Below, piece by piece: positions 27,127 through 64,000 of a DNA stretch of 64,000 nucleotides. The notes under the pieces were generated by a model. That model was not told where the DNA came from. It did no database searches and saw only the letters and a program-made list of their open reading frames with translations. Both the position numbers and the translations under genes were made by a program. The stretch comes from Leptonemataceae bacterium. GTDB taxonomy: Bacteria; Spirochaetota; Leptospiria; Leptospirales; Leptonemataceae. Position 1 is the first letter of the stretch; each line of letters begins with the position of its first letter. The stretch is taken from positions 3,424,001-3,488,000 of the forward strand of contig OZ245742.1 in assembly GCA_965227295.1 (NCBI GenBank), written 5' to 3'.

Positions 27127-27158
27127 TTGCGACTGCTAACTTGCGAATTATCAGCGTT

Positions 27159-27366
27159 AGGGATGCGCAGGGTGCCGCGCAGCGGCAGTCCGGAGCGCGA
27201 AGCGCGGAGGACCAGCAAGGCGCCGCTTGTCGGTGCCGCGGTAGATGTTCCCCGCTGGCGAAGCGGAGCCCGGAGCAGCCCGGCGCCCGGCGGCTTCAGA
27301 CGGGGTGGATCGAACAGCGACCCCGGCCAGCGGGGTCTCGTTGGCGCCGGCCGGGCGCAACGCCCA
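27159..27366 (+). repeat. Branched palindromic element, family B, copy 2 (inside the IS)
   Basis: Same scaffold as 759-909, with compensatory stem changes. Confidence 0.85.
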
Positions 27367-32588: not shown

Positions 32589-33455
32589 ATGAACGAAGGT
32601 GCACTGCGATTCTCCGGGCCGCCGGATTCACTCCCCGCGAAACTCACGGCCGTTCTCGAAGTCATTTTGCTGCTGGCTTCCGCTACGGCGGTGCTGCTGT
32701 GGTTGATGGGCATGCCCCTGTTTTATGCGGACGGCGAGCCGGTGCTTTCCGTGTTCACGGCGCTGTCGCTGCTGCTGCTCGTGATCGTGAGGCTGGCGCG
32801 CAAGTTTCTCTTCGGCTGGCCCACGGCACTTTCGCTGGCGTTGATCGGCGCGGTACTCGGCGGCAATCTTTCGTCCATGCTCATGCTCACGAGCATGCCG
32901 CCGGGGCTCATGCGTTCCTTTCCGGACGTGGTCATGACCTCGGTCTTCACGTCCCTCGGCCTGCTGCTCTTTTGTCTGTACGAGTTACTGATCGTCCTGC
33001 GTGAAACGCCGCGTTCGACCTTTATTCTGGACGACATCCTGTTGCACCTCGCCCTGGTTCCCGGCGGCTTAAGTTTACTCGGCTATCTGTTTGGCAATCC
33101 GTTGTATCTCAGTGTCGGGGAAGATCCGCGGGTGGGCATCTCGCCGTTGGAGATGATGTTCATGGGAACCTATGCCGTCACGGCGGTACTTTCGAATCGT
33201 CAGTTGTTTTTGTGGCAGTTCCTGGCCGCCGGCTGGATCAACCGCCTCATTTTCGCCGCGTTGTTTGCGAATCAGTTCATTGCGCCGGTGATCACGGCGT
33301 ACGCCTTTTCGACGGGCCTCGAATCCGGCGGCGGGCCGGGCATTGAGCTGTTCGTGTTGTTGGCCGGCGTGATTGCGACGTTGACGTTCCTGGTGATCCA
33401 GGCGTACTTACACACGCGCTCGCGCGAATCCGCACCGGCTCCGTCCCGCGAGTAA
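32589..33455 (+). CDS. Multi-pass membrane protein
   Basis: About 8 hydrophobic segments. Confidence 0.75.
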   Translation: MNEGALRFSGPPDSLPAKLTAVLEVILLLASATAVLLWLMGMPLFYADGEPVLSVFTALSLLLLVIVRLARKFLFGWPTALSLALIGAVLGGNLSSMLMLTSMPPGLMRSFPDVVMTSVFTSLGLLLFCLYELLIVLRETPRSTFILDDILLHLALVPGGLSLLGYLFGNPLYLSVGEDPRVGISPLEMMFMGTYAVTAVLSNRQLFLWQFLAAGWINRLIFAALFANQFIAPVITAYAFSTGLESGGGPGIELFVLLAGVIATLTFLVIQAYLHTRSRESAPAPSRE

Positions 33456-33664
33456 AGGGGCGATGTCTGATATTCAGAGCGACAGCCCGTCCGTACTCCG
33501 CGCGAATTTGAATACATTTCCGGTGTCTGCGCCGGGTCTGAAAAAAGACTGGCGCCGGTTTGCGCGGTATTGTAAGTTCGGCGCGTGTTTTCTTCGTTGA
33601 TCTGGACGCTCATCTTCGTCTACGCCGCGTTCTTTTATTTATTGAACCGGGTGATGGCGGATTG

Positions 33665-34252
33665 ATGGTACTCGGACACTACGCCGCCGCATTTATTGCC
33701 CGCCCGCACGTGCGGGAGGCGCCGTTGTGGGTGTTGCTTCTCTGCGCGAACCTGGCGGAGTTTTTGTGGCTCGGCCTGGCGCTGGCCGGCATCGAGGCGA
33801 CCGAGCCCGCGTCCATTTTAGACGCCACGTTCCAGAACCTCAAAGTACACATGACCTACAGCCACAACGTCGTGCCGAATCTGCTGCTCGGCTTCGGCGT
33901 GTTCGTCGTGGTGTACGCATACTATCGCAATCGAACTCTGGCGCTCTGGTGTGCGGGGCTCACGGTGCTGCACGTATGGTGCGACTACATCGTCGGCTTT
34001 CAACATGAATGGCTGGGGCGGGACTCACTCAAGATCGGCCTCGATTCCTACGGGCACTTCCCGCACGTCGCGATCCTCATCGAACTCGTTTTCGCCGTCG
34101 GTTGCGTCTTTTATTACAGCGTCGCCGAAAAACGCGCGGGCCGGCCGGTGCCGCGGCGTAAGCTCGTGTTTCTCTACACGGCGTTCATCATCGGAGTCGG
34201 CGCCTGGTTGCCCACGGCCACGATTCCGTTGCGCACAGTGCTGGGGTTGTGA
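33665..34252 (+). CDS. Membrane protein, metal-dependent hydrolase-like
   Basis: MVLGHY, YSHN, HVWCDYIV. Confidence 0.7.
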   Translation: MVLGHYAAAFIARPHVREAPLWVLLLCANLAEFLWLGLALAGIEATEPASILDATFQNLKVHMTYSHNVVPNLLLGFGVFVVVYAYYRNRTLALWCAGLTVLHVWCDYIVGFQHEWLGRDSLKIGLDSYGHFPHVAILIELVFAVGCVFYYSVAEKRAGRPVPRRKLVFLYTAFIIGVGAWLPTATIPLRTVLGL

Positions 34253-34260
34253 GCCTTCGA

Positions 34261-35440
34261 GACGCCGTTCCGTTGCGCCTCAGAAAGGATTAATGTACAC
34301 TGACCGCCACTTAAGCCACGATCCGGGGCGTGCTCGAACTACTTGAGCGTTTCCGGTAGTTCAAGAGCTGCGATTCGTTGCGTTGGCCGTGAAAAATAGA
34401 AAGTAAGTCCCCCGCGAACCCGCACCCGCTCCGCCCCGCGAATTGAGCGGGGCTCCGGGGTGCGGATTCGCTTGATGTGCACTTCCAATCTGTGAGGCTC
34501 AGGCACCGAGAACATACCAACGCGTTTCTTACGGCAAAGACGCCGTTCCGGTGCGCCTTACCACATTCCCCGGCATGACCTCCGTTCATCTGCTGGAACC
34601 AGCCGTGACCATAAAAGTGTGAATCCAAACTGGCCTTAACTTACATCACGATTCGGGGCGTGCTCAAACGGATGAAAAGTTTCCGGCAGTTCAAGAACTC
34701 TGGCTCGCGGCGTTTGCCGTGAGACACATAAGGTAAGTCGCGCAATAGGTAAGGGATTGATTTGGCTACGGCTTTGCGGGAGTTGTGGATTTTCGTTTCG
34801 TTAAGAATGCTGCGTTCGACCCGGACGCTGATTGTGCGACTCAGCTACCGAGGCGATTCTTACGGCAAAGACGCCGTTCCGGTGCGCCTTACCACGTTCC
34901 CCGGCATGACCTCCGTTCATCTGCTGGAACCAGCTGTACCCATAAAATCATTACTGTACACTGGCCGCCACTTACACTACGATTCGGGGCGTGCTCGAAC
35001 GAATAAAACTTACCGGTAGTTCAAGAGCTGCGGTTCGTGGCGGTTGCCGTGAGAAACACGAAGTAAGTCGCGGAATTGTGAAGGGCTTTTTTTTGCTACA
35101 GCTGAGCGGGAGTTGTGGATTTTCGTTTTGTTAGGAATGCTGCGTTCGACCCGGACGCTGATTGTGCGACTCAGCTACCGAGGCGATTCTTACGGCAAAG
35201 ACGCCGTTCCGGTGCGCCTTACCACGTTCCCCGGCATGACCTCCGTTCATCTGCTGGAACCAGCCGTACCCATAAAAGCCTTAATCCAAACTGGCCGCCA
35301 CTTACACCACGATTCGGGGTGCGCTCGAAAGAATAGAGTTTTGCGGTAGTTCAAGAGTCGCGGTTCGTCACGTTGGCTGTGAGAAACATAAAGTAAGCCG
35401 CAGCATCGTTCAGTCTTTTGTGGGCTACGGCTGAGCGGAC
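34261..35440 (+). repeat. Tandem array 1 of ~330-bp non-coding unit (family A)
   Basis: Anchor GACGCCGTTCCG at 34261, 34539, 34870, 35200 (periods 278, 331, 330). Confidence 0.97.
34414..34471. repeat. 58-bp REP-like hairpin (family C) nested in array 1
   Basis: GCGAACCCGCACCC...GCCCCGC-loop-GCGGGGC...GGGTGCGGATTCGC; near-identical copy at 63079-63136. Confidence 0.9.
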
Positions 35441-35610
35441 TTGTGCGGGATGTCTCCTGCATCGCCTGCGCTCGTCAAGATTGATGTAAGCAAACTTCGT
35501 GATGTTGGCTCGCGTCGGAAAATTAGAAGGTTGCGGCAAAGAACGAGGATGTTTTTTTGCACCGATGCGATGGGATGATCGTCGAAGGCATACGCTGCAC
35601 TGATAAAAAA

Positions 35611-36981
35611 ATGCCCGCAAAGAAAAAAGAAAAACCGAACCTCGACGAAGCCCTGGAAAACGACGACGCCGATGCTGTGCGGCGTTGTTTGCGCGACGGT
35701 GCCGATCCGAACTTCATCGCCGAAAACCGGCGCAGTCTCCCGTTCATTTGCGCGGCCGAAGAAAACAGCGATGCAGTGGTGCGAGCGCTCGTCGAAGGCG
35801 GGGCCGACATCAATCTCCCGGGCAAGAACGGGAACACCCCGCTCAGCAGAATGTGTGGCGCCTGGGGTCCCGCTCGCGTTACGGTCATGGAATTCGACGC
35901 GCTGAAAGCACGGATCCGGCTCCTCGTGGAACTCGGTGCCGATGTCAACGCCATCGGGAAAAACGATACGACGCCGCTGCTTGCTGCGATCCATGGGGCC
36001 GGCGGCCCCATCGTGGAGTTACTGCTCAATGAACTCGGTGCCGATCCGACCATGCGATCCTTCGGTGGAACGACACCCCTGATGTATGCCGCGCTCTATG
36101 AAGACGTGACCATGATCGACGCACTCGTTCGTTGCGGTTGTCCGCTCAACGCGACGAACGAAAACGGCATCAGCGCCCTGCACATCACGGCGATCACGAA
36201 CAATCCGGTGGCGGCCCGGGCCCTCCTCGGTTACGGTGCCGAAGCAAACCTCGCGGATCGATACGGCGCCACGCCGCACGACTACGCGGTGTTGTTCGAA
36301 CTTCCCGAACTCGCGGAAATTCTGCGCACGCCGGAGACACCGGCCGCCACGGAGGATCGACTCCGCTCCATTTGCGACAGGGCGCACCGCAAGTTTCGGG
36401 AGTATGTCCAATCAGAAGCTGAACGACTGCTGAGTCAGGATTATTTCGACGCCAATTTTGAGGCCGTCGTCACGCTTTTCGCGAATCAGTACTTTTCGAT
36501 GAACGATCTTACAGTCCGGCGTGTCTTTGATCCTCTCTGGCCGCAGTTTCTAAAACTCGTGCCGCCTTTTGCGGCGGGTCACTATGCGACTACAACCTTC
36601 GAATTCAAGTCCCAGGGCGGCGCCATCCTGGACTTTTTTTACGACAAAGAACCATTGCTGGACGTTGCGATTGCACACTACGAAAGGCTCGGCCTGGCAG
36701 AGTTCGAAGAGCTCGCCCATAAAGCCCGAAGCATCTACTACGAAAGTGTGGTCTCCAAAATAGAAGCACTGCGCCAACGCATGCGCGACGAATACCCCCG
36801 TGACGAGTACGTCTCCGGTGAGGACGCCGTCTATGAATGGTACGAGGAGGAAGACGGCGATATTCCGGAGGGGAGACTCTTTGACGATATCCGTTCGAAA
36901 ATGGAGGATCTGCACGACGCACCGGCCGCCATAGAAGCCCGCAAGAAAGCCTTCGAAGAATACCTGCGCGAAGAATCATAA
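35611..36981 (+). CDS. Ankyrin-repeat protein with acidic, possibly DUF4375/DMP19-like C-terminal domain, copy 1
   Basis: GADPN, GNTPL, TTPLMYAA, SALHITA repeats; the C-domain assignment is tentative. Confidence 0.88.
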   Translation: MPAKKKEKPNLDEALENDDADAVRRCLRDGADPNFIAENRRSLPFICAAEENSDAVVRALVEGGADINLPGKNGNTPLSRMCGAWGPARVTVMEFDALKARIRLLVELGADVNAIGKNDTTPLLAAIHGAGGPIVELLLNELGADPTMRSFGGTTPLMYAALYEDVTMIDALVRCGCPLNATNENGISALHITAITNNPVAARALLGYGAEANLADRYGATPHDYAVLFELPELAEILRTPETPAATEDRLRSICDRAHRKFREYVQSEAERLLSQDYFDANFEAVVTLFANQYFSMNDLTVRRVFDPLWPQFLKLVPPFAAGHYATTTFEFKSQGGAILDFFYDKEPLLDVAIAHYERLGLAEFEELAHKARSIYYESVVSKIEALRQRMRDEYPRDEYVSGEDAVYEWYEEEDGDIPEGRLFDDIRSKMEDLHDAPAAIEARKKAFEEYLREES

Positions 36982-36994
36982 ACAGGAGAAGAAC

Positions 36995-38356
36995 ATGCCT
37001 GAAGAAAAAGAAGAGCCGCCCAATCTCGACGATGCCCTGGAAAACGACGATGCCGATGCTGTGCGGCGTTGCCTGCGTGACGGTGCCGATCCGAATGCCA
37101 GGATTAAGTACGGACAGCTTCCGTTGACCAGCGCCGCACGGGAGAACAGCGAAGACGTGTTGCGAGCCCTCGTCGAAGGCGGTGCCGATATCAACCTGCC
37201 CGCCGCGGCTCCGCTGAGCGCGGTCTGCGAAAGCGGCCTGGTCCCCGTTCACTTCCAGAGACCGGGACTCGATGCGGTGGAAGCACGCATCCGACTGTTG
37301 GTCGAACTCGGAGCCGACGTCAACTTCACCGCACAGAACGTCGACCCGCCGGTCTTTTGCGCGCTTCACGGAACCGGAGGCTCCATCGTGGAGTTACTGA
37401 TCAACGAACTCGGCGCCGATCCCGCGGTGCAGTCCTACAACGGAACGACCGCTCTGATGCATGCCGCGATTTACGAGGACGTGGCGTTCATCGACGGTCT
37501 CGTTCGTTGCGGTTGTCCGCTCAACGCGACGAACGAAAACGGCATCAGCGCCCTGCACATCACGGCGATCACGAACAATCCGGTGGCGGCCCGGGCCCTC
37601 CTCGGTTACGGTGCCGAAGCAAACCTCGCGGATCGATACGGCGCCACGCCGCACGACTACGCGGTGTTGTTCGAACTTCCCGAACTCGCGGAAATTCTGC
37701 GCACGCCGGAGACACCGGCCGCCACGGAGGATCGACTCCGCTCCATTTGCGACAGGGCGCACCGCAAGTTTCGGGAGTATGTCCAATCAGAAGCGGAAAA
37801 CCTTCTGAGCACTCCGTATTTCGACGACCATTTTTTCAGCGCCATCGTGCACTTCGCGGATCTGTACTTCGCGATAAAAGGGATTACGATGCGCCATGTA
37901 TTTTCGAATCAGTGGCCGCAGTTCTTAAAACTCGTACCGCCCTTTGCAGCAGGTCACTACGCCACAACTACATTCGAATTCCTGACCCGGGACGGAAACA
38001 TCCTGCACTTTTTTTACGAGAAAGAGCCGTTGCTGGACGTTGCGATTGCATACTACGAAAGACTCGGCCTGGCAGAGTTCAAAGAACTCGCCCGCAATGC
38101 CCGGAGCATCTACTACGAAAGCGTGGTCTCCAGAGTAGAAGCACTGCGCCAACGCATGCGCGACGAATACCCCCGTGACGAGTACGTCTCCGGTGAGGAC
38201 GCCGTCTATGAATGGTACGAGGAGGAAGACGGCGATATTCCGGAGGATAAACTCTTCCGGGACATCCGTTCGAAAATGGGTCGCCTGTACGGTACACCCG
38301 CCGTCATCGAGGCTCGCAAAAAAGCCTACGAAGAATACCTGCGCGAAGGATCATAA
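36995..38356 (+). CDS. Ankyrin-repeat protein, copy 2
   Basis: Paralogue of 35611-36981 with identical DNA tracts. Confidence 0.88.
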   Translation: MPEEKEEPPNLDDALENDDADAVRRCLRDGADPNARIKYGQLPLTSAARENSEDVLRALVEGGADINLPAAAPLSAVCESGLVPVHFQRPGLDAVEARIRLLVELGADVNFTAQNVDPPVFCALHGTGGSIVELLINELGADPAVQSYNGTTALMHAAIYEDVAFIDGLVRCGCPLNATNENGISALHITAITNNPVAARALLGYGAEANLADRYGATPHDYAVLFELPELAEILRTPETPAATEDRLRSICDRAHRKFREYVQSEAENLLSTPYFDDHFFSAIVHFADLYFAIKGITMRHVFSNQWPQFLKLVPPFAAGHYATTTFEFLTRDGNILHFFYEKEPLLDVAIAYYERLGLAEFKELARNARSIYYESVVSRVEALRQRMRDEYPRDEYVSGEDAVYEWYEEEDGDIPEDKLFRDIRSKMGRLYGTPAVIEARKKAYEEYLREGS

Positions 38357-38369
38357 TCAGGAAAACAAC

Positions 38370-38528
38370 ATGCCCGCAAAGAAAAAAGAAAAACCGAACC
38401 TCGACGAAGCCCTGGAAAAGCGTTTCTTCGATGATGCCGGGGTGCAACTGAACCTCCAGATCGACTCCAAAATCGCCGAGCAGCCGCGCCGGAAAGCATT
38501 CCAGGAATACTGGCGCGCGAAAGACTGA
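38370..38528 (+). pseudogene. Collapsed third ankyrin-gene copy
   Basis: Begins with the same DNA as copy 1 (MPAKKKEKPNLDEALE), joined to a C-terminal-like RRKAFQEYWRAKD. Confidence 0.8.
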
Positions 38529-43528: not shown

Positions 43529-43630
43529 GGATACACGCTTGTACGCGTATCACCGATCGCAAGCAAAAACCTGCGACAAGCGACGGGAACTCAGCCGCAC
43601 AACCTGCGCCCGGGTCGAACGCGGCTACAC

Positions 43631-44687
43631 ACTTAATCTTTCTCAAGATCCGCCACGTACCGCAGCTCTTGAACTACCGGAAACGCTCAAGTAGTTCCCA
43701 CACGCCCCGAGTCGTGGTGTAAGTGACGGCCAGTGTACATTAGCCTTGTATGGGTACAGCTGGTTCCAGCAGATGAACGGAGGTCATGCCGGGGAGCATG
43801 GTAAGGCGCACCGGAACGGCGTCTTCACTTTAAGAAACGCTAAGGTAGCTGCGTCGCAAACCGACGTCCGGGTCGAACGCAGCATTCTTAACAAAACGAA
43901 AAACCACAACTCCCGCGGACCGTAGCCAAAAAGGCCCTCAACGCTTGCCGACTTACTTTATGTTTCTCACAGCCAACGTGACGAACCGCAGCTCTTGAAT
44001 TACCGGTAAGTTTTATTCGTTCGAGGACGCCCCGAATCGTAGTGTAAGTGACGGCCAGTGTACATTAAGCCTTGTATGGGTACAGCTGGTTCCAGCAGAT
44101 GAACGGAGGTCATGCCGGGGAGTGTGGTAAGGCGCACCGGAACGGCGTCTTCGTCGTAAGAAACGTTACGGTAGCTGAGTCGCAAACCGACGTCCGGGTC
44201 GAACGCAGCATTCTTAACAAAACGAAAAACCACAACTCCCGCGGACCGTAGCCAAAAAGGCCCCTCAACGCTTGCCGGCTTACTTTATGTTTCTCACAGC
44301 CAACGTGACGAACCGCAGCTCTTGAATTACCGGTAAGTTTTATTCGTTCGAGGACGCCCCGAATCGTAGTGTAAGTAGCGGCCAGTGTACATTAAGCCTT
44401 GTATGGGTACGGCTGGTTCCAGCAGATGAACGGAGGTCATTCCGGGGAATGTGGTAAGGCGCACCGGAACGGCGTCTTCTTCGCAAGAGTCGCCCGGGTA
44501 GCTGAGTCGCAAACCGACGTCCGGGTCGAACGCAGCATTCTTAACAAAACGAAAGTCCACAACTCCCGCAAAGCCGTAGCCAAAAAAAGCCCTTCACAAT
44601 TCCGCGACTTACTTCGTGTTTCTCGTGGCAAACGCAACGAATCGCAGCTCTTGAACTACCGGAGAGTTTTGATTCGTTCGAGCGCGC
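43631..44687 (-). repeat. Tandem array 2 of family A unit (inverted relative to array 1)
   Basis: Reverse-complement anchors ending at 43823, 44149, 44476 (periods 326, 327). Confidence 0.97.
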
Positions 44688-44695
44688 ATATGTGT

Positions 44696-45073
44696 TCAAC
44701 GTTTCACGCCCACGATCATTACGATCCGCGCAACGACATAGATGAAGAGGAACGCAAGAATCCCGAACACGATGACACGCAGGGCCGACACGGCGATGTC
44801 GTCCCAGAACTCGCTGTCTACCAGGAAGTAGCCCGGCTCGTCCTGCGCGCGCGGGCCGGCGTGGCACATGCAACCGAAACGCGTAAAGCGGCCCAGGCGT
44901 TGTGCGTTCGTTTCGCCGTCGCCGGAGTACAAAGCCGCGCAGTTTGCGCTGCATTGCGTTTCGAGATAAGGGTCCACGTAATATGCGGTGAGCGCAAAGT
45001 AGGCGGCGAACATACACGCGGCTCCGATGATCACCATGACGATGCCGATGCTGTTGAGTTGCGTGCGGGCCAT
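44696..45073 (-). CDS. Small two-TM protein with Cys-rich loop
   Basis: Two TM helices flanking CSANC...GCMC. Confidence 0.65.
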   Translation of the reverse strand: MARTQLNSIGIVMVIIGAACMFAAYFALTAYYVDPYLETQCSANCAALYSGDGETNAQRLGRFTRFGCMCHAGPRAQDEPGYFLVDSEFWDDIAVSALRVIVFGILAFLFIYVVARIVMIVGVKR

Positions 45074-61203: not shown

Positions 61204-62568
61204 TTAGGTAGCCGGCGTGCGCATGGTAACGAACTCTTCGGCCGCCGTGGGATGAATGCCGATGGTCTGATCGAAGACCGCCTTCGTGGCGCCGGCCTTG
61301 AGGGCTACGGCCAGGCCCTGCACGATCTCGCCGGCCTCGGGGCCGGCCATGTGTACGCCGAGGACCCGGTCGCTCCGTGCGTCCACGACGAGTTTCATGA
61401 GCGTCTTTTCGTCACGGCCGCTCAGGGTGTGCTTCAAGGGGCGAAAGACGGAACGGAAAATGTTTACGTCTCCGTGGCGTTCGCGTGCTTCTTTTTCCGT
61501 AAGTCCTACTGTTCCAATGTTAGGCGAACAGAAGACCGCGGTGGGGATGTTTTCGTAGTCCACAACGGTGGGCTGATTGCCGAAGAGATTCTTCGCCACG
61601 GCCGTGCCCTCGGCCAGGGCCACCGGCGTTAGCTGGTAACGATCGATGACGTCGCCCACGGCGTAGATGGACGGCACACTCGTCTGGTAGTGTTCGTCCA
61701 CGATGATCGCGTGCCGCGCCCCGGTGGCGACCCCGGCTTCTTTGAGGCCGAGTCCGTCGGTATTCGGCAGACGGCCGATGGCGCACAGAATCAGTTCGCT
61801 CTCGTGGACCTCATTGCCTTCCAGGCAGGTACGGTAGACGGTCCTGCCGTTCGCCTCGTGTTTCTCGATTCGATCGAAGTCGCGTTCGTAGAGAATGGTA
61901 ATGCCCTTCTTCTGCATTTCGTCGGAGACGTGCCGGCGAATGTCGTCGTCGAAGCCGCGCAGGATCAGGTTGCCGCGGTGGATCAACGTGGTTTCCACTC
62001 CCAGGCCGTGAAAGACGCTCGCGAACTCACAGGCAATGTAACCGCCGCCGGAGATGAGCGCACGGGGCGGCAATTCTTCGAGGGCGAAGATTTCGTTCGA
62101 AGATAAAAACAGATCGTTCCCGGGAAAGTCCGGCGCAAACGGCCGGCTGCCCACGGCGATGAGGATGTACTTCGCCGTAATCGTTTTGCCGCCGACGTCG
62201 ACGCTGTGTTCGTCGATGATTCGCGCCCGGCTGTCGTAGATGGTGACGCCGGCATTGATTAACATGTTACGGTAGATGCCGTTCAGGCGTTCGATCTCGC
62301 GGTCTTTGTTTTCGCGCAACGTCTTCCAGTCGAACTCCGGGCGTTGCGATTGCCAGCCGTAACCGCGCGCGTCTTCGAAGTCGTCTGCGAAGTGGGCCCC
62401 GTAGACGAAGAGTTTTTTCGGTACGCAGCCGACGTTGACGCAGGTGCCGCCCATGAATCGTTCTTCGGCAACGGCCACGCGCGCGCCGAAACCCGCGGAC
62501 AAGCGCGCCGCACGCACGCCGCCGGAACCCGCGCCGATGACGAATAGATCGTAGTCGAAATTACTCAC
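61204..62568 (-). CDS. gor: Glutathione-disulfide reductase
   Basis: [27 protein letters not shown]. Confidence 0.95.
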
Positions 62569-62636
62569 AATGCTTCGGACGATTGTATGGCCCGGGCGTT
62601 ACGAGGCACCTTCTTTTTTTGGGCTTTGCACGGATG

Positions 62637-63282
62637 CAAGAACCCGGTTCGGTGCGTTTGCCGTGAAAAAAGGAGCAAATCGCAAAACGCTGAAGGGTCT
62701 TTTTTGGCTACGGCTCTTCGGAGTTGTGGATTTTCGTATTGCTGAGAATGCTGCGTTCGACCCGGACGCTAATTGTGCGACTCAGCTACCATAGCGTTTC
62801 CTGCGACGAAGACGCCGTTCCGGTGCGCCTTGCCACACTTCCCCGGCATGACCTCCGTTCATCGGCTGGAACCAGCCGTACCCAATAAAGTCTTAATCCA
62901 AACTGGCCTCAACTTACACCACGATTCGGGGCGTGTTCGAATGACCGAAAAGTTTTCGGTAGTTCAAGGCTTGTGGCTCGCGGCGTTTGCCGTGAAAAAA
63001 GGGAGTAAATCGCCGAACGTTAAGGTGGTTTTTTTTGCTACAGCTGAGCGGGAGTTGTGGATTTTCGTTTTGTAAGTCGCGAATCCGCACCCGCTCCGCC
63101 CCGCGGAGAGAGCGGGGCTGCGGGGTGCGGATTCGCTTCATGGATTTTCCAGGGAGAAGACGCCGTTCCGGTGCGCCTTACCACACTTCCCCGGCATGAC
63201 CTCCGATCATCTGCTGGAACCAGCCGTACCCAAAAAAGTCTTAATCCAAACTGGCCTCAACTTACACCACGATTCGGGGCGT
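62637..63282 (+). repeat. Tandem array 3 of family A unit
   Basis: Anchors at 62811 and 63159, plus a leading partial unit. Confidence 0.95.
63079..63136. repeat. 58-bp REP-like hairpin (family C) nested in array 3
   Basis: Near-identical to 34414-34471 except mainly in the loop. Confidence 0.9.
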
Positions 63283-63290
63283 CTGCGAAT

Positions 63291-64000
63291 TCAAACAAGA
63301 AACGGCACCGTCTTTTCGTAGAGCCAGTCGGGCATCTTTTTCTTGAGCGTTTCGTCGATGAAGTCGCGGCGATAGCGGGGCGAGAAGTGAATGAGATACA
63401 ACCGCTCCACGTCGCGCAACGCCTCGGCGTTCGCAACGATTTCGTCGAGATGAATGTGGCCCCACTGCCGCGCGCGTTCCACCGGGCGTTTGTCGTCAAT
63501 GAACGTGCACTCCAGAAACAGAATCTTCGACTGACGGACGATTTCGTTTTCCAGAAGAAACTCGATCTGCGTATCGCCGGAGAAGGTAATGTGCGGGACG
63601 ACGGCGTCGTAAAACATATCGTCGCGTTCTTTCTTGAGCCGCGCAATCTCCGGGCCGGGCAGATTCAGGAACTCCGGCTTGAGCTTGCGCGTGCGTTCGA
63701 AGATGGAGTAACCGTTGGACGGCACCCGATGCACGCTGCGCACGGCGCGAAACTTCAGGGTCCCGCTGAGATCGTACTCGCGATCGTAGTCCAGGGCGTG
63801 GACGTTGTAGGTCGCTTCGAAGTCTTCGATCTCGAACCACAGGCGGAGGATTTCTTTGAGCGGCCTTTCGACTTCCGGCGGCACGTAGATGTCCGCGGGC
63901 GGCAGGCGGCGCAGATTGCGTTGGGATACGTGATAGGGAATGCCGGCGCTGTGATCCAGGTGGCCGTGGGTCAGCAGGATCGTCGGCACCTCGACCAGCC
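63291..64000 (-). CDS. Metallo-beta-lactamase-fold protein, RNase Z-like (5' end outside window)
   Basis: THGHLDH, HRVP, FSGDT, LECTF, GHIH, IHFSPRY. Confidence 0.85.
   Translation of the reverse strand, partial: LVEVPTILLTHGHLDHSAGIPYHVSQRNLRRLPPADIYVPPEVERPLKEILRLWFEIEDFEATYNVHALDYDREYDLSGTLKFRAVRSVHRVPSNGYSIFERTRKLKPEFLNLPGPEIARLKKERDDMFYDAVVPHITFSGDTQIEFLLENEIVRQSKILFLECTFIDDKRPVERARQWGHIHLDEIVANAEALRDVERLYLIHFSPRYRRDFIDETLKKKMPDWLYEKTVPFLV

Follow-up and report, generated by a model that had tools for sequence, protein, structure and literature searches.

The 64,000-nucleotide stretch of DNA analyzed here (the window) carries three head-to-tail arrays of a repeat unit of about 330 bp. 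This repeat is real and matches nothing known; it is at most a candidate for a new molecular system. Our best guess is non-coding repeat DNA that is transcribed and whose core is under selection.

Arrays and anatomy of the 330-bp unit

The anchor GACGCCGTTCCGGTGCGCC was found at 9 sites in the window, against 0.02 expected, and 0 out of 100 shuffles reached 9. Eight of the sites are exact and the one at 34261 has one mismatch; all nine positions given for the anchor in the initial annotation are present. A search with nhmmer using a profile built from four full units gave 11 strong matches (E <= 1.7e-28) that form the three head-to-tail arrays, and the best match to the unit profile in the window outside these arrays had an E value of only 0.15. 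Tandem Repeats Finder reported array 1 (34515-35401, period 330, 2.7 copies, 86% matches) and array 2 (43655-44682, period 327, 3.1 copies, 90% matches); array 3 is absent from its output. The arrays and their units are as follows.

34261-35465, plus strand: array 1 (anchor, Tandem Repeats Finder, nhmmer)
34261-34538, plus strand: array 1 unit A1a, with an internal deletion and a hairpin
34539-34869, plus strand: array 1 unit A1b
34870-35199, plus strand: array 1 unit A1c
35200-35445, plus strand: array 1 unit A1d, truncated
43566-44695, minus strand: array 2 (anchor, Tandem Repeats Finder, nhmmer)
44477-44695, minus strand: array 2 partial first unit
44150-44476, minus strand: array 2 unit A2a
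43824-44149, minus strand: array 2 unit A2b
43627-43823, minus strand: array 2 unit A2c, followed by a diverged tail down to 43566
62624-63315, plus strand: array 3 (anchor, nhmmer)
62635-62810, plus strand: array 3 partial unit
62811-63158, plus strand: array 3 unit A3a, 348 nt, with a hairpin
63159-63293, plus strand: array 3 unit A3b, truncated

Successive anchors lie 278, 331 and 330 nt apart in array 1, 327 and 326 nt apart in array 2 and 348 nt apart in array 3. The period of 326-331 bp initially proposed therefore holds for four units and fails for two aberrant ones (278 and 348), each of which has a 60-nt GC-rich hairpin substituting part of the unit. It is extremely improbable that the arrays are an artefact of assembly: the copies differ by 5-30%, each has unique flanks, the source contig is 5.94 Mb long and we found no sign supporting an artefact.

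Within the unit two conserved blocks stand out.

Unit columns 1-73 (34870-34942 in A1c), plus strand: conserved block C1, which contains the anchor as well as a small hairpin whose loop includes CCTCC
Unit columns 239-310 (35108-35179 in A1c), plus strand: conserved block C2, starting with the 3' arm of a weak hairpin plus a T-rich run

Pairwise identity averages 95.5% in C1 (28 copy pairs) and 92.9% in C2 (15 pairs) versus 66-79% between copies in the five variable segments V1-V5, a difference that speaks for a selected core. Uneven gene conversion is an alternative source of uneven conservation. Out of the 145 columns of C1 and C2, 24 vary, compared with 98 of the 161 columns of the variable segments; the segment boundaries were drawn after inspection of the data, which inflates the Fisher p value of 1e-15, and only 6-10 copies cover each alignment column. 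Each unit has its core in the order C2, a 20-nt hypervariable linker and C1, alternating with about 165 nt of variable sequence. Among the blocks quoted in the initial annotation, the 36-mer is exact in 5 of the 8 copies with its region and one base off in each of the remaining three, GGGAGTTGTGG has 6 exact occurrences, and the 22-mer is exact 6 times, that is in every copy with its region. Column counts and block identities thus agree with the alternation of near-invariant blocks and variable segments described there. The variable segments had also been described as more AT-rich, and this is only partly so: the GC content is 0.63 in C1 and 0.52 in C2 and ranges from 0.42 to 0.54 in the variable segments. 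Between A2a and A2b, identity is 95-100% whichever segment is compared.

Coding potential, RNA structure and transcription signals

The unit is non-coding, as had been noted initially. Substitution events amount to 21, 19 and 21 at the three codon positions, that is no codon periodicity. The codon log-odds of the unit ORFs were 0.0-0.07, compared with 0.31 +/- 0.13 for chunks of real genes and -0.10 +/- 0.12 off frame (about 4% of the codons in the reference table come from one gene entered out of frame), and their GC3 was 0.56-0.61 versus mostly 0.70-0.80 in the window genes. The frame is broken in 4 of 8 copies by 1-nt indels, an in-frame TGA or a frameshift. Pfam and NCBIfam returned no family for the unit ORFs, and the AlphaFold model of a unit ORF had a mean pLDDT of 52.6 and a pTM of 0.28.

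These results bear on another reading, in which the units are partly decayed tandem copies of a gene of about 61-100 codons for a small protein, and which we consider very unlikely. The C1-V1 frame is open in 6 of the 8 window copies, the equivalent frame is open in P0001, P0002, P0003 and P0007 (ORFs read from other copies, see below), public collections list such ORFs as predicted proteins, and synonymous-like changes are slightly commoner in the C1-V1 frame (17/58 versus 11/55 and 11/57). Beyond the absent periodicity, the codon usage and GC3 that differ from those of window genes and the low pLDDT, this reading is opposed by a 1-nt indel just upstream that creates two upstream frames within the family, by a sole consistent start that is GTG or TTG and has no clear Shine-Dalgarno sequence before it by eye, by conservation outside the ORF that equals conservation inside, and by the lack of a homologue beyond the source contig among 1.84 billion representatives. 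The practical lesson is that predicted ORFs of 48-100 codons within the repeat are very likely not genes.

A multimeric structured RNA, one of the possibilities raised by the initial annotation, found no support in the fold and covariation analyses. The z-scores of the full-unit folds were +0.23 and +0.07 on the two strands, no better than shuffles. Five candidate helices were 93.2% paired versus 92.9% in shuffles, with 126 out of 500 shuffles as high, and had a covariation score of 0.050 versus 0.048; a long-range helix between unit columns 62-72 and 225-235, suggested by the inverted-repeat search, was 81.3% paired versus 80.7% in shuffles (299/500). In a covariation scan of both strands the number of compensated pairs never exceeded 2 per helix, and RNAalifold on 4 units gave no support beyond shuffles on either strand. 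In the predicted C1 hairpin 7 of 9 pairs are invariant and the 2 others are broken in one copy each. On the fold z-scores and covariation, whose power is limited by the small number of similar copies (6-8), we set aside a structured RNA as recognized by excess stability or compensatory changes. That the arrays encode a new family of non-coding RNAs of about 260-330 nt, or a multimeric transcript, with C1 as an invariant 5' domain and a body of recombining variable modules, is unlikely.

What is conserved is sequence and not structure, and reading C1 reveals a short inverted repeat of 5+5 bases flanking two A's. Both features would fit an action at the DNA level, in which a regulator or nucleoid protein would bind to the invariant blocks and their repetition would provide a platform. 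We judge this quite unlikely, because the roughly 145 conserved bases per unit far exceed the need of a binding site and other genes have no such block upstream: when the window was scanned with core 13-mers, allowing one mismatch, 26 positions came up outside the arrays, and those that were placed lie within ORFs. A 17-mer resembling block 1 at 45-61 and a weak colinear match at 232-301 are inside a molybdopterin oxidoreductase gene and were taken as chance.

Two kinds of hairpin were located in the units.

35096-35128, plus strand: terminator-like site in array 1, where a T-rich run follows a weak hairpin
34766-34788, 62708-62729 and 63038-63060, plus strand: terminator-like sites at the equivalent unit position
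44579-44557, 44244-44230 and 43918-43904, minus strand: terminator-like sites at the equivalent unit position
34413-34472, plus strand: GC-rich palindromic hairpin of 60 nt replacing the C2 part of A1a
63078-63137, plus strand: second copy of the GC-rich hairpin, in A3a

The terminator-like site is present in all seven units that have the region, each time on the strand of its own array; with energies of -8 to -10 kcal/mol and z-scores between -0.15 and -1.23, its hairpins are weak. The GC-rich hairpin at 34413-34472, whose arms also turned up in the inverted-repeat search, reaches -43.7 kcal/mol (z = -4.77; 0 out of 200 shuffles equally stable) and the one at 63078-63137 reaches -49.1 kcal/mol (z = -4.67). 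They are 91% identical over 65 nt (repeat family D17), and in these variant units the strong hairpin occupies the place of the terminator-like site. The strong hairpin of two units, like the ORFs in other copies, had been missed in the initial annotation. The scan for sigma-70-like promoters was negative in all three array regions; by eye, none was seen before the tRNA gene either, and the scan may misfit this organism. A Shine-Dalgarno-like motif lies upstream of only 5 of the 27 Pfam-supported ORFs, which weakens the candidacy of the CCTCC loop as an anti-Shine-Dalgarno site; we found it unconvincing.

The LDR and QUAD/Sib repeats of E. coli are type I toxin-antitoxin repeats, with intergenic units of several hundred bp that are tandem and present at two or more loci. 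Their layout is similar to the one described here, and each of our units could by analogy be a module made of a toxic-peptide gene and an antisense RNA. This is highly improbable: unlike LDR and QUAD/Sib, the 330-bp unit is without a small hydrophobic ORF. In none of the arrays does a stop-to-stop frame contain a 17-residue window with a Kyte-Doolittle mean above 1.5, the maximum being 1.5, and the best windows contain charged residues. A type I toxin was rejected on these grounds.

Genomic context, spread and probable recombination

Array 1 starts 8 nt past the stop codon of the ORF at 33560-34252 (plus strand) and is upstream of an ankyrin-repeat ORF at 35557-36981 (plus strand). The start of array 2 directly abuts the stop codon of the ORF at 44696-45073 (minus strand), and array 3 is flanked by ORFs at 61204-62568 (minus strand, glutathione-reductase-like) and 63291-63998 (minus strand). 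Related sequences include a glutathione reductase of 69% identity in a genome of 6.44 Mb and a match of 89% on a contig of 2 kb. Arrays 1 and 2 have the orientation of both their neighbors and array 3 opposes both of its own. None of the 51 window ORFs scanned has a transposase, reverse transcriptase, integrase, cas or other mobile-element domain. The three array regions contain 3, 1 and 2 pairs of inverted repeats of at least 14 nt, none of them at the ends of units or arrays. In both respects the initial annotation, which had seen no adjacent transposase, reverse transcriptase, integrase or cas gene and no terminal inverted repeats, was correct, and its statement that the repeat is neither CRISPR, attC cassettes nor short REP elements was likewise borne out. 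A CRISPR array was rejected because the copies are homologous across the whole 330 nt, with variable segments that are 66-79% identical, and because cas genes are absent among the 51 ORFs scanned. Clusters of attC sites are defined by attC sites that bound unrelated cassettes, the integrase being optional. Here the units are homologous to each other over their full length and the window ORFs include no integrase, and on these grounds an integron cassette or attC array was rejected. A MITE or other non-autonomous transposon is also disfavored: the arrays have neither terminal inverted repeats nor common termini. No cognate transposase was found within the 64-kb window.

Protein searches recovered 10 more short ORFs translated from copies elsewhere (P0001-P0008, P0013 and P0014). 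All ten map to the 5,938,550-bp contig on which one of the window genes was found at 100% identity, and none of the eight ORFs P0001-P0008 is identically encoded in the window. ORFs of 48-100 codons in other copies are predicted proteins in public collections (ncbi, ena). A profile search of 1.84 billion proteins gave 11 matches at E <= 0.001, of which 7 are family ORFs from a single contig; the other four (P0009-P0012) are long unrelated repeat proteins that we set aside after reading. The suggestion that the family extends past the window was thus right, with at least 10 more ORF-bearing copies on the same contig, and its description as high-copy is unsupported, the 10 being a lower bound.

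Scanning genome contigs with a degenerate 22-nt C1 pattern gave 23 single matches in unrelated taxa, which we judged to be chance; nhmmer gave matches at E <= 1 for 12 of these 23 loci, all within model positions 23-70 and with a best E value of 0.016. The contigs scanned therefore do not include the source genome. One unit compared by blastn with plasmids and phages had no match. The initial annotation had proposed an Infernal-type comparison with Rfam, and the repeat matches no family there: over the whole window only a tRNA passed the gathering threshold, and the three arrays gave 7 matches at E <= 10, all far below gathering (best 20.7 bits versus 55). The anchor sequence is absent from the literature searched, and keyword searches of the literature found no description of such a repeat. 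In all, the family is dispersed in the source genome and was not found in any other sequence searched.

Counted in unit columns, the array starts are at 1, about 120 and about 151 and the array ends at about 248, about 315 and about 134. The variable segments are a few alleles common to different arrays in differing combinations. In V2, A1c is 96% identical to A2a and A2b, and A1a is 88% identical to A2c; in V3, A1d is 93-95% identical to A2a and A2b; in V1, A1b and A1d group with array 3. The array ends, unlike at each locus, together with the alleles shuffled among arrays suggest growth driven by recombination and not by transposition, and the differing ends argue against an element with fixed termini.

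Another reading of the spread is a selfish, satellite-like or non-autonomous element without host function, whose core would be the target of a trans-acting enzyme (a recombinase or rolling-circle Rep) encoded elsewhere and whose arrays would be seeded by excised circles or illegitimate insertion. We regard it as possible, if on the unlikely side. The family was found in one genome only, the arrays occupy unrelated intergenic places, and array 3, running from about column 151 to about column 134, is consistent with the insertion of about two units in circularly permuted form, but arrays 1 and 2 are not circularly permuted. P0008 consists of 43 unit-derived residues followed by a lipoprotein-like ORF whose profile match begins at position 108 of 276, and could mark an insertion into a gene, but its NCBIfam score of 92.6 bits against a cut-off of 250 makes the truncation uncertain. 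The lack of mobile-element domains in the 51 scanned window ORFs, and the scarcity of inverted repeats and their absence from the ends, also oppose this reading.

Interpretation and likeness to known repeats

The best explanation overall, quite possible in our view and put forward tentatively, is an intergenic non-coding DNA repeat that recombines, has a selected core and is transcribed as an RNA with C1 as its working part. Arrays would grow, shrink and swap segments as their units recombine homologously, through unequal exchange and gene conversion, spread would not occur via transposition of a fixed-ended element, and selection would keep the core constant. More speculatively, the units may be transcribed in the direction that reads as plus in array 1, from their own unrecognized promoters or by read-through from the upstream gene; the transcript of a standard unit may end at the weak hairpin and U-run, with the strong GC hairpin at that place in variant units; and the 73-nt C1 may be what works in the non-coding RNA. 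For a plus-strand RNA speak the terminator-like site in 7/7 units, the strong hairpin at that place in two variants and the co-orientation of arrays 1 and 2 with their neighbors. Against the RNA step speak the negative fold and covariation results, the lack of a recognized promoter, the weakness of the terminator-like hairpins and the orientation of array 3 opposite to both its neighbors.

The repeat resembles the species-specific intergenic repeats and minisatellites of prokaryotes, of which the mycobacterial MIRU-type VNTRs are an example, in being tandem, non-coding and restricted to one lineage, with two of the three arrays sitting between same-direction genes. It differs from them in a unit of about 330 bp instead of tens of bp, in its modular layout of conserved and variable parts and in alleles shuffled among loci. 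With eukaryotic satellite DNA it shares monomer size, head-to-tail arrays at several loci, ragged ends and neighboring monomers that are most alike (A2a and A2b), but it is on a bacterial chromosome, with two to four units per array and strongly uneven conservation. The embedded 60-nt GC-rich hairpin is reminiscent of a REP/BIME element, whereas the 330-bp unit is non-palindromic and copies within an array are co-oriented. NsiR1 of Nostoc is reportedly a tandem array of small-RNA genes. Our units are likewise non-coding and head to tail, with a terminator-like site in every standard unit, but the 330-bp unit is several times longer, has no recognized promoter and occurs at several loci.

A conserved stretch alternating with a variable one in tandem is, according to a recent preprint, the architecture of many RNA-guided systems, and 96.1% of the 1,672 periodic clusters in its survey have periods of 5, 18 or 60-79 nt (10.64898/2026.10.21.760802). 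The arrays described here share this alternation with RNA-guide arrays (CRISPR, TIGR, VIPR), but their period is about 330 nt, their variable parts are diverged homologues (66-79% identity) and not unique spacers, and no effector gene is near them among the 51 window ORFs scanned.

Orphan repeats are common, at least one species-specific repeat being present in 97% of 613 species (PMC3372372). As it stands, the 330-bp repeat is one of many such orphan species-specific repeats. In compact bacterial chromosomes, arrays of 330-bp non-coding units with a near-identical core nevertheless need explaining. Transcribed units would represent an RNA family specific to the lineage, with a modular body that recombines; untranscribed ones would be a rare case of satellite-like DNA spread within a bacterial chromosome.

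Three arrays of a modular repeat

The 19-nt anchor that marks the start of the unit was recovered at all nine positions where the initial annotation had placed it (eight exact and 34261 with one mismatch; 0.02 expected by chance), and the three conserved blocks quoted there were found as described. Tandem Repeats Finder reported array 1 (period 330, 2.7 copies) and array 2 (period 327, 3.1 copies) and did not report array 3. Searching the window with a profile of four complete units gave eleven strong pieces (E <= 1.7e-28), grouped as three arrays, and no further copy within the 64 kb better than E = 0.15. An assembly artefact would be a very unlikely rival explanation of such arrays.

Profile matches of the repeat arrays
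34261-35465, + strand, array 1
44695-43566, - strand, array 2
62624-63315, + strand, array 3

A 17-mer resembling block 1 with one mismatch (45-61), together with a weak colinear profile match (232-301), was treated as chance; both fall within a gene for a molybdopterin oxidoreductase that is read from the opposite strand.

Successive anchors are 278, 331, 330, 327, 326 and 348 nt apart. The two units of odd length, A1a in array 1 and A3a in array 3, have part of the unit replaced by a GC-rich hairpin, which may represent a separate REP-like family.

Copies of the GC-rich hairpin
34413-34472, 60-nt palindromic hairpin inside a repeat unit
63078-63137, 60-nt palindromic hairpin inside a repeat unit
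33423-33465, left-arm half-copy at the 3' end of ORF 32589-33455

Another small repeat family is a 44-nt direct repeat (89% identical) at two distant intergenic sites, 754-797 and 27154-27197. At the border of array 1 (34222-34279) we noted by eye an 11-nt identical stretch, possibly a microhomology, which occurs both in the last bases of ORF 33560-34252 and in the first unit's mutated anchor; its two copies start 38 nt apart. The ORFs 35557-36981 and 36995-38356, both with ankyrin repeats, form a pair of tandem duplicates (period 1375-1384; identity about 78%), followed by the start only of a third copy (38361-38470).

The eleven pieces were aligned in one register before the unit was subdivided, and the boundaries of its blocks and segments were picked post hoc, with the data in view.

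Subdivision of the unit (mean pairwise identity)
Columns 1-73, block C1, 95.5%
Columns 111-123, island, 93%
Columns 148-158, island, 89%
Columns 239-310, block C2, 92.9%
Remaining columns, segments V1-V5, 66-79%

C1 and C2 together have 24 varying columns out of 145, compared with 98 out of 161 for the variable segments, the most variable part being V5, a 20-nt linker (66%). Since C2, V5 and C1 are contiguous in an array, each period consists of a core of ~165 nt followed by ~165 nt of variable sequence. This core appears to be under selection, and C1 might be the working part; a DNA-level binding platform would be a rival reading. The variable segments are diverged homologues and not unique spacers. 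A few alleles are combined differently across arrays: V2 of A1c is 96% identical to that of A2a and A2b and V2 of A1a is 88% identical to that of A2c, V3 of A1d is 93-95% identical to that of A2a and A2b, and V1 of A1b and A1d groups with array 3. A2a and A2b, which are adjacent, share 95-100% identity whichever segment is compared. We infer that the arrays were built, trimmed and reshuffled by recombination between units, through unequal exchange and gene conversion.

Coding capacity and RNA-level signals

Each unit contains ORFs, the frame through C1 and V1 is open in six of the eight window copies, and comparable ORFs of other copies stand as predicted proteins in public collections, so that decayed small-protein genes have to be considered. 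The initial claim that the unit is non-coding was nevertheless upheld by codon positions, codon usage, broken frames, lack of a family match and a poor predicted fold. Substitutions are spread evenly over codon positions (21/19/21), and the codon log-odds of unit ORFs are 0.0-0.07, versus 0.31 +/- 0.13 for 157 chunks of real genes and -0.10 +/- 0.12 off-frame. Their GC3 is 0.56-0.61 versus mostly 0.70-0.80, and GC content is 53% for the unit versus 59.4% for the window. In array 2 the loss of 1 nt just upstream alters the upstream frame, and in array 3 an extra nucleotide separates the anchor from the block that follows it. The frame is interrupted by a TGA in A1b and shifted in A2c. Conservation outside the C1/V1 ORF equals that inside, Pfam and NCBIfam searches of unit ORFs returned no family, and AlphaFold gave a mean pLDDT of 52.6 and a pTM of 0.28. 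The array ORFs of 85-105 codons (34762-35019, 62773-63075, 34311-34628 and similar) are most likely not genes. Type I toxin-antitoxin-like modules were considered too, but the arrays are without a hydrophobic ORF.

The structured RNA also proposed at the outset found no support, fold z-scores being near 0 and pairing equal to that of shuffles, although six to eight similar copies give such comparisons low power. Rfam run over the whole window at the gathering score returned a tRNA-Leu alone and no family for the arrays, where E <= 10 yielded seven weak matches, all far under threshold. The full unit folds no better than shuffles (z = +0.23 and +0.07 on the two strands), and the RNAalifold covariation term for four units was positive, that is unfavourable, on one strand and slightly favourable on the other. 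When stacked compensated pairs were sought, no helix exceeded two such pairs. Five candidate helices were 93.2% paired versus 92.9% in shuffles (126/500 equally high), and a long-range helix taken from an inverted repeat, with one compensated pair, was 81.3% paired versus 80.7% (299/500).

Only one strand-specific feature recurs: where C2 begins, a weak hairpin precedes a T-rich run. It was flagged as terminator-like in 7/7 standard units, each time on the strand of the array itself. The stability of these hairpins is low (-8 to -10 kcal/mol, z -0.15 to -1.23), and at the same place A1a and A3a carry a very stable one (-44 and -49 kcal/mol, with z near -4.7). The units might be transcribed on the + strand of array 1. 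No sigma-70-like promoter was seen in any of the three array regions; the scan may not suit this host, since by eye none was seen upstream of the tRNA gene either. The host also seems to use Shine-Dalgarno sites little: only 5 of 27 Pfam-supported window ORFs have a motif resembling one in the 20 nt that precede the start of the longest ORF.

Mobility and distribution

The 51 ORFs scanned in the window encode ordinary chromosomal functions, and no domain of a transposase, an integrase, a reverse transcriptase or a cas gene was found among them. Between 7070 and 20609, lipoxygenase-like, animal-type haem peroxidase, cytochrome P450 and fatty-acid hydroxylase genes lie within ~14 kb, possibly an oxylipin-type pathway, adjoined by two 7TMR-DISM hybrid sensor kinases. 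No inverted repeats were found at unit or array ends, and the three arrays start and stop at different unit positions, which argues against an element with fixed termini. The ends of array 3 lie at nearly the same unit position and would fit an inserted circle of about two units, or duplication in place. A selfish satellite-like element could alternatively depend on a partner enzyme encoded elsewhere.

In a collection of one genome per species, a degenerate pattern derived from C1 matched 23 times, each match standing singly; all were rejected as chance, leaving no relative with the C1 block in that collection, which does not include the source genome. Plasmid and phage collections held no match to the unit. 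Searching with the forward-frame ORF retrieved six short proteins, and a profile search of 1.84 billion protein representatives returned the same proteins minus P0004, plus P0007 and P0008, and no relatives on other contigs; a reverse-frame ORF added two more. All ten ORFs lie on one 5,938,550-bp contig, which also encodes a protein 100% identical to the glutathione-reductase-like one of the window. As the window encodes no identical version of any of the eight forward-frame proteins (P0001-P0008), they derive from further copies elsewhere in this genome. The glutathione-reductase-like protein has its nearest relatives at 89% (a 2-kb contig) and 69% (a 6.44-Mb genome) identity, and the absence of homologues may partly reflect how few close relatives have been sequenced. 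Three of the eight (P0003, P0005 and P0007) have different sequence upstream of the C1-encoded residues, so non-standard units seem common. P0008 combines 43 residues derived from the unit with an ORF that, further along, shows a weak match to a lipoprotein family (starting at profile position 108; 92.6 bits versus a cut-off of 250).

RNA-guide arrays show a similar alternation of conserved and variable stretches; they differ from the ~330-bp units, whose variable parts are not unique spacers. A literature search for the anchor sequence found no occurrence in the papers covered, and keyword searches listed no similar repeat. In a recent preprint survey of 1,672 periodic intergenic clusters, the period was 5, 18 or 60-79 nt for 96.1%, and exceptions are described with periods of 10, 8 and 7 nt (10.64898/2026.10.21.760802). 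Species-specific repeats are common, at least one occurring in 97% of 613 species (PMC3372372). The initial suggestion of an undescribed system is so far unsupported. The closest descriptive class is that of species-specific intergenic repeats or minisatellites of prokaryotes. The repeat is real, non-coding and modular, stands head-to-tail at three loci in the window with more copies elsewhere in the genome, and matches no known family.
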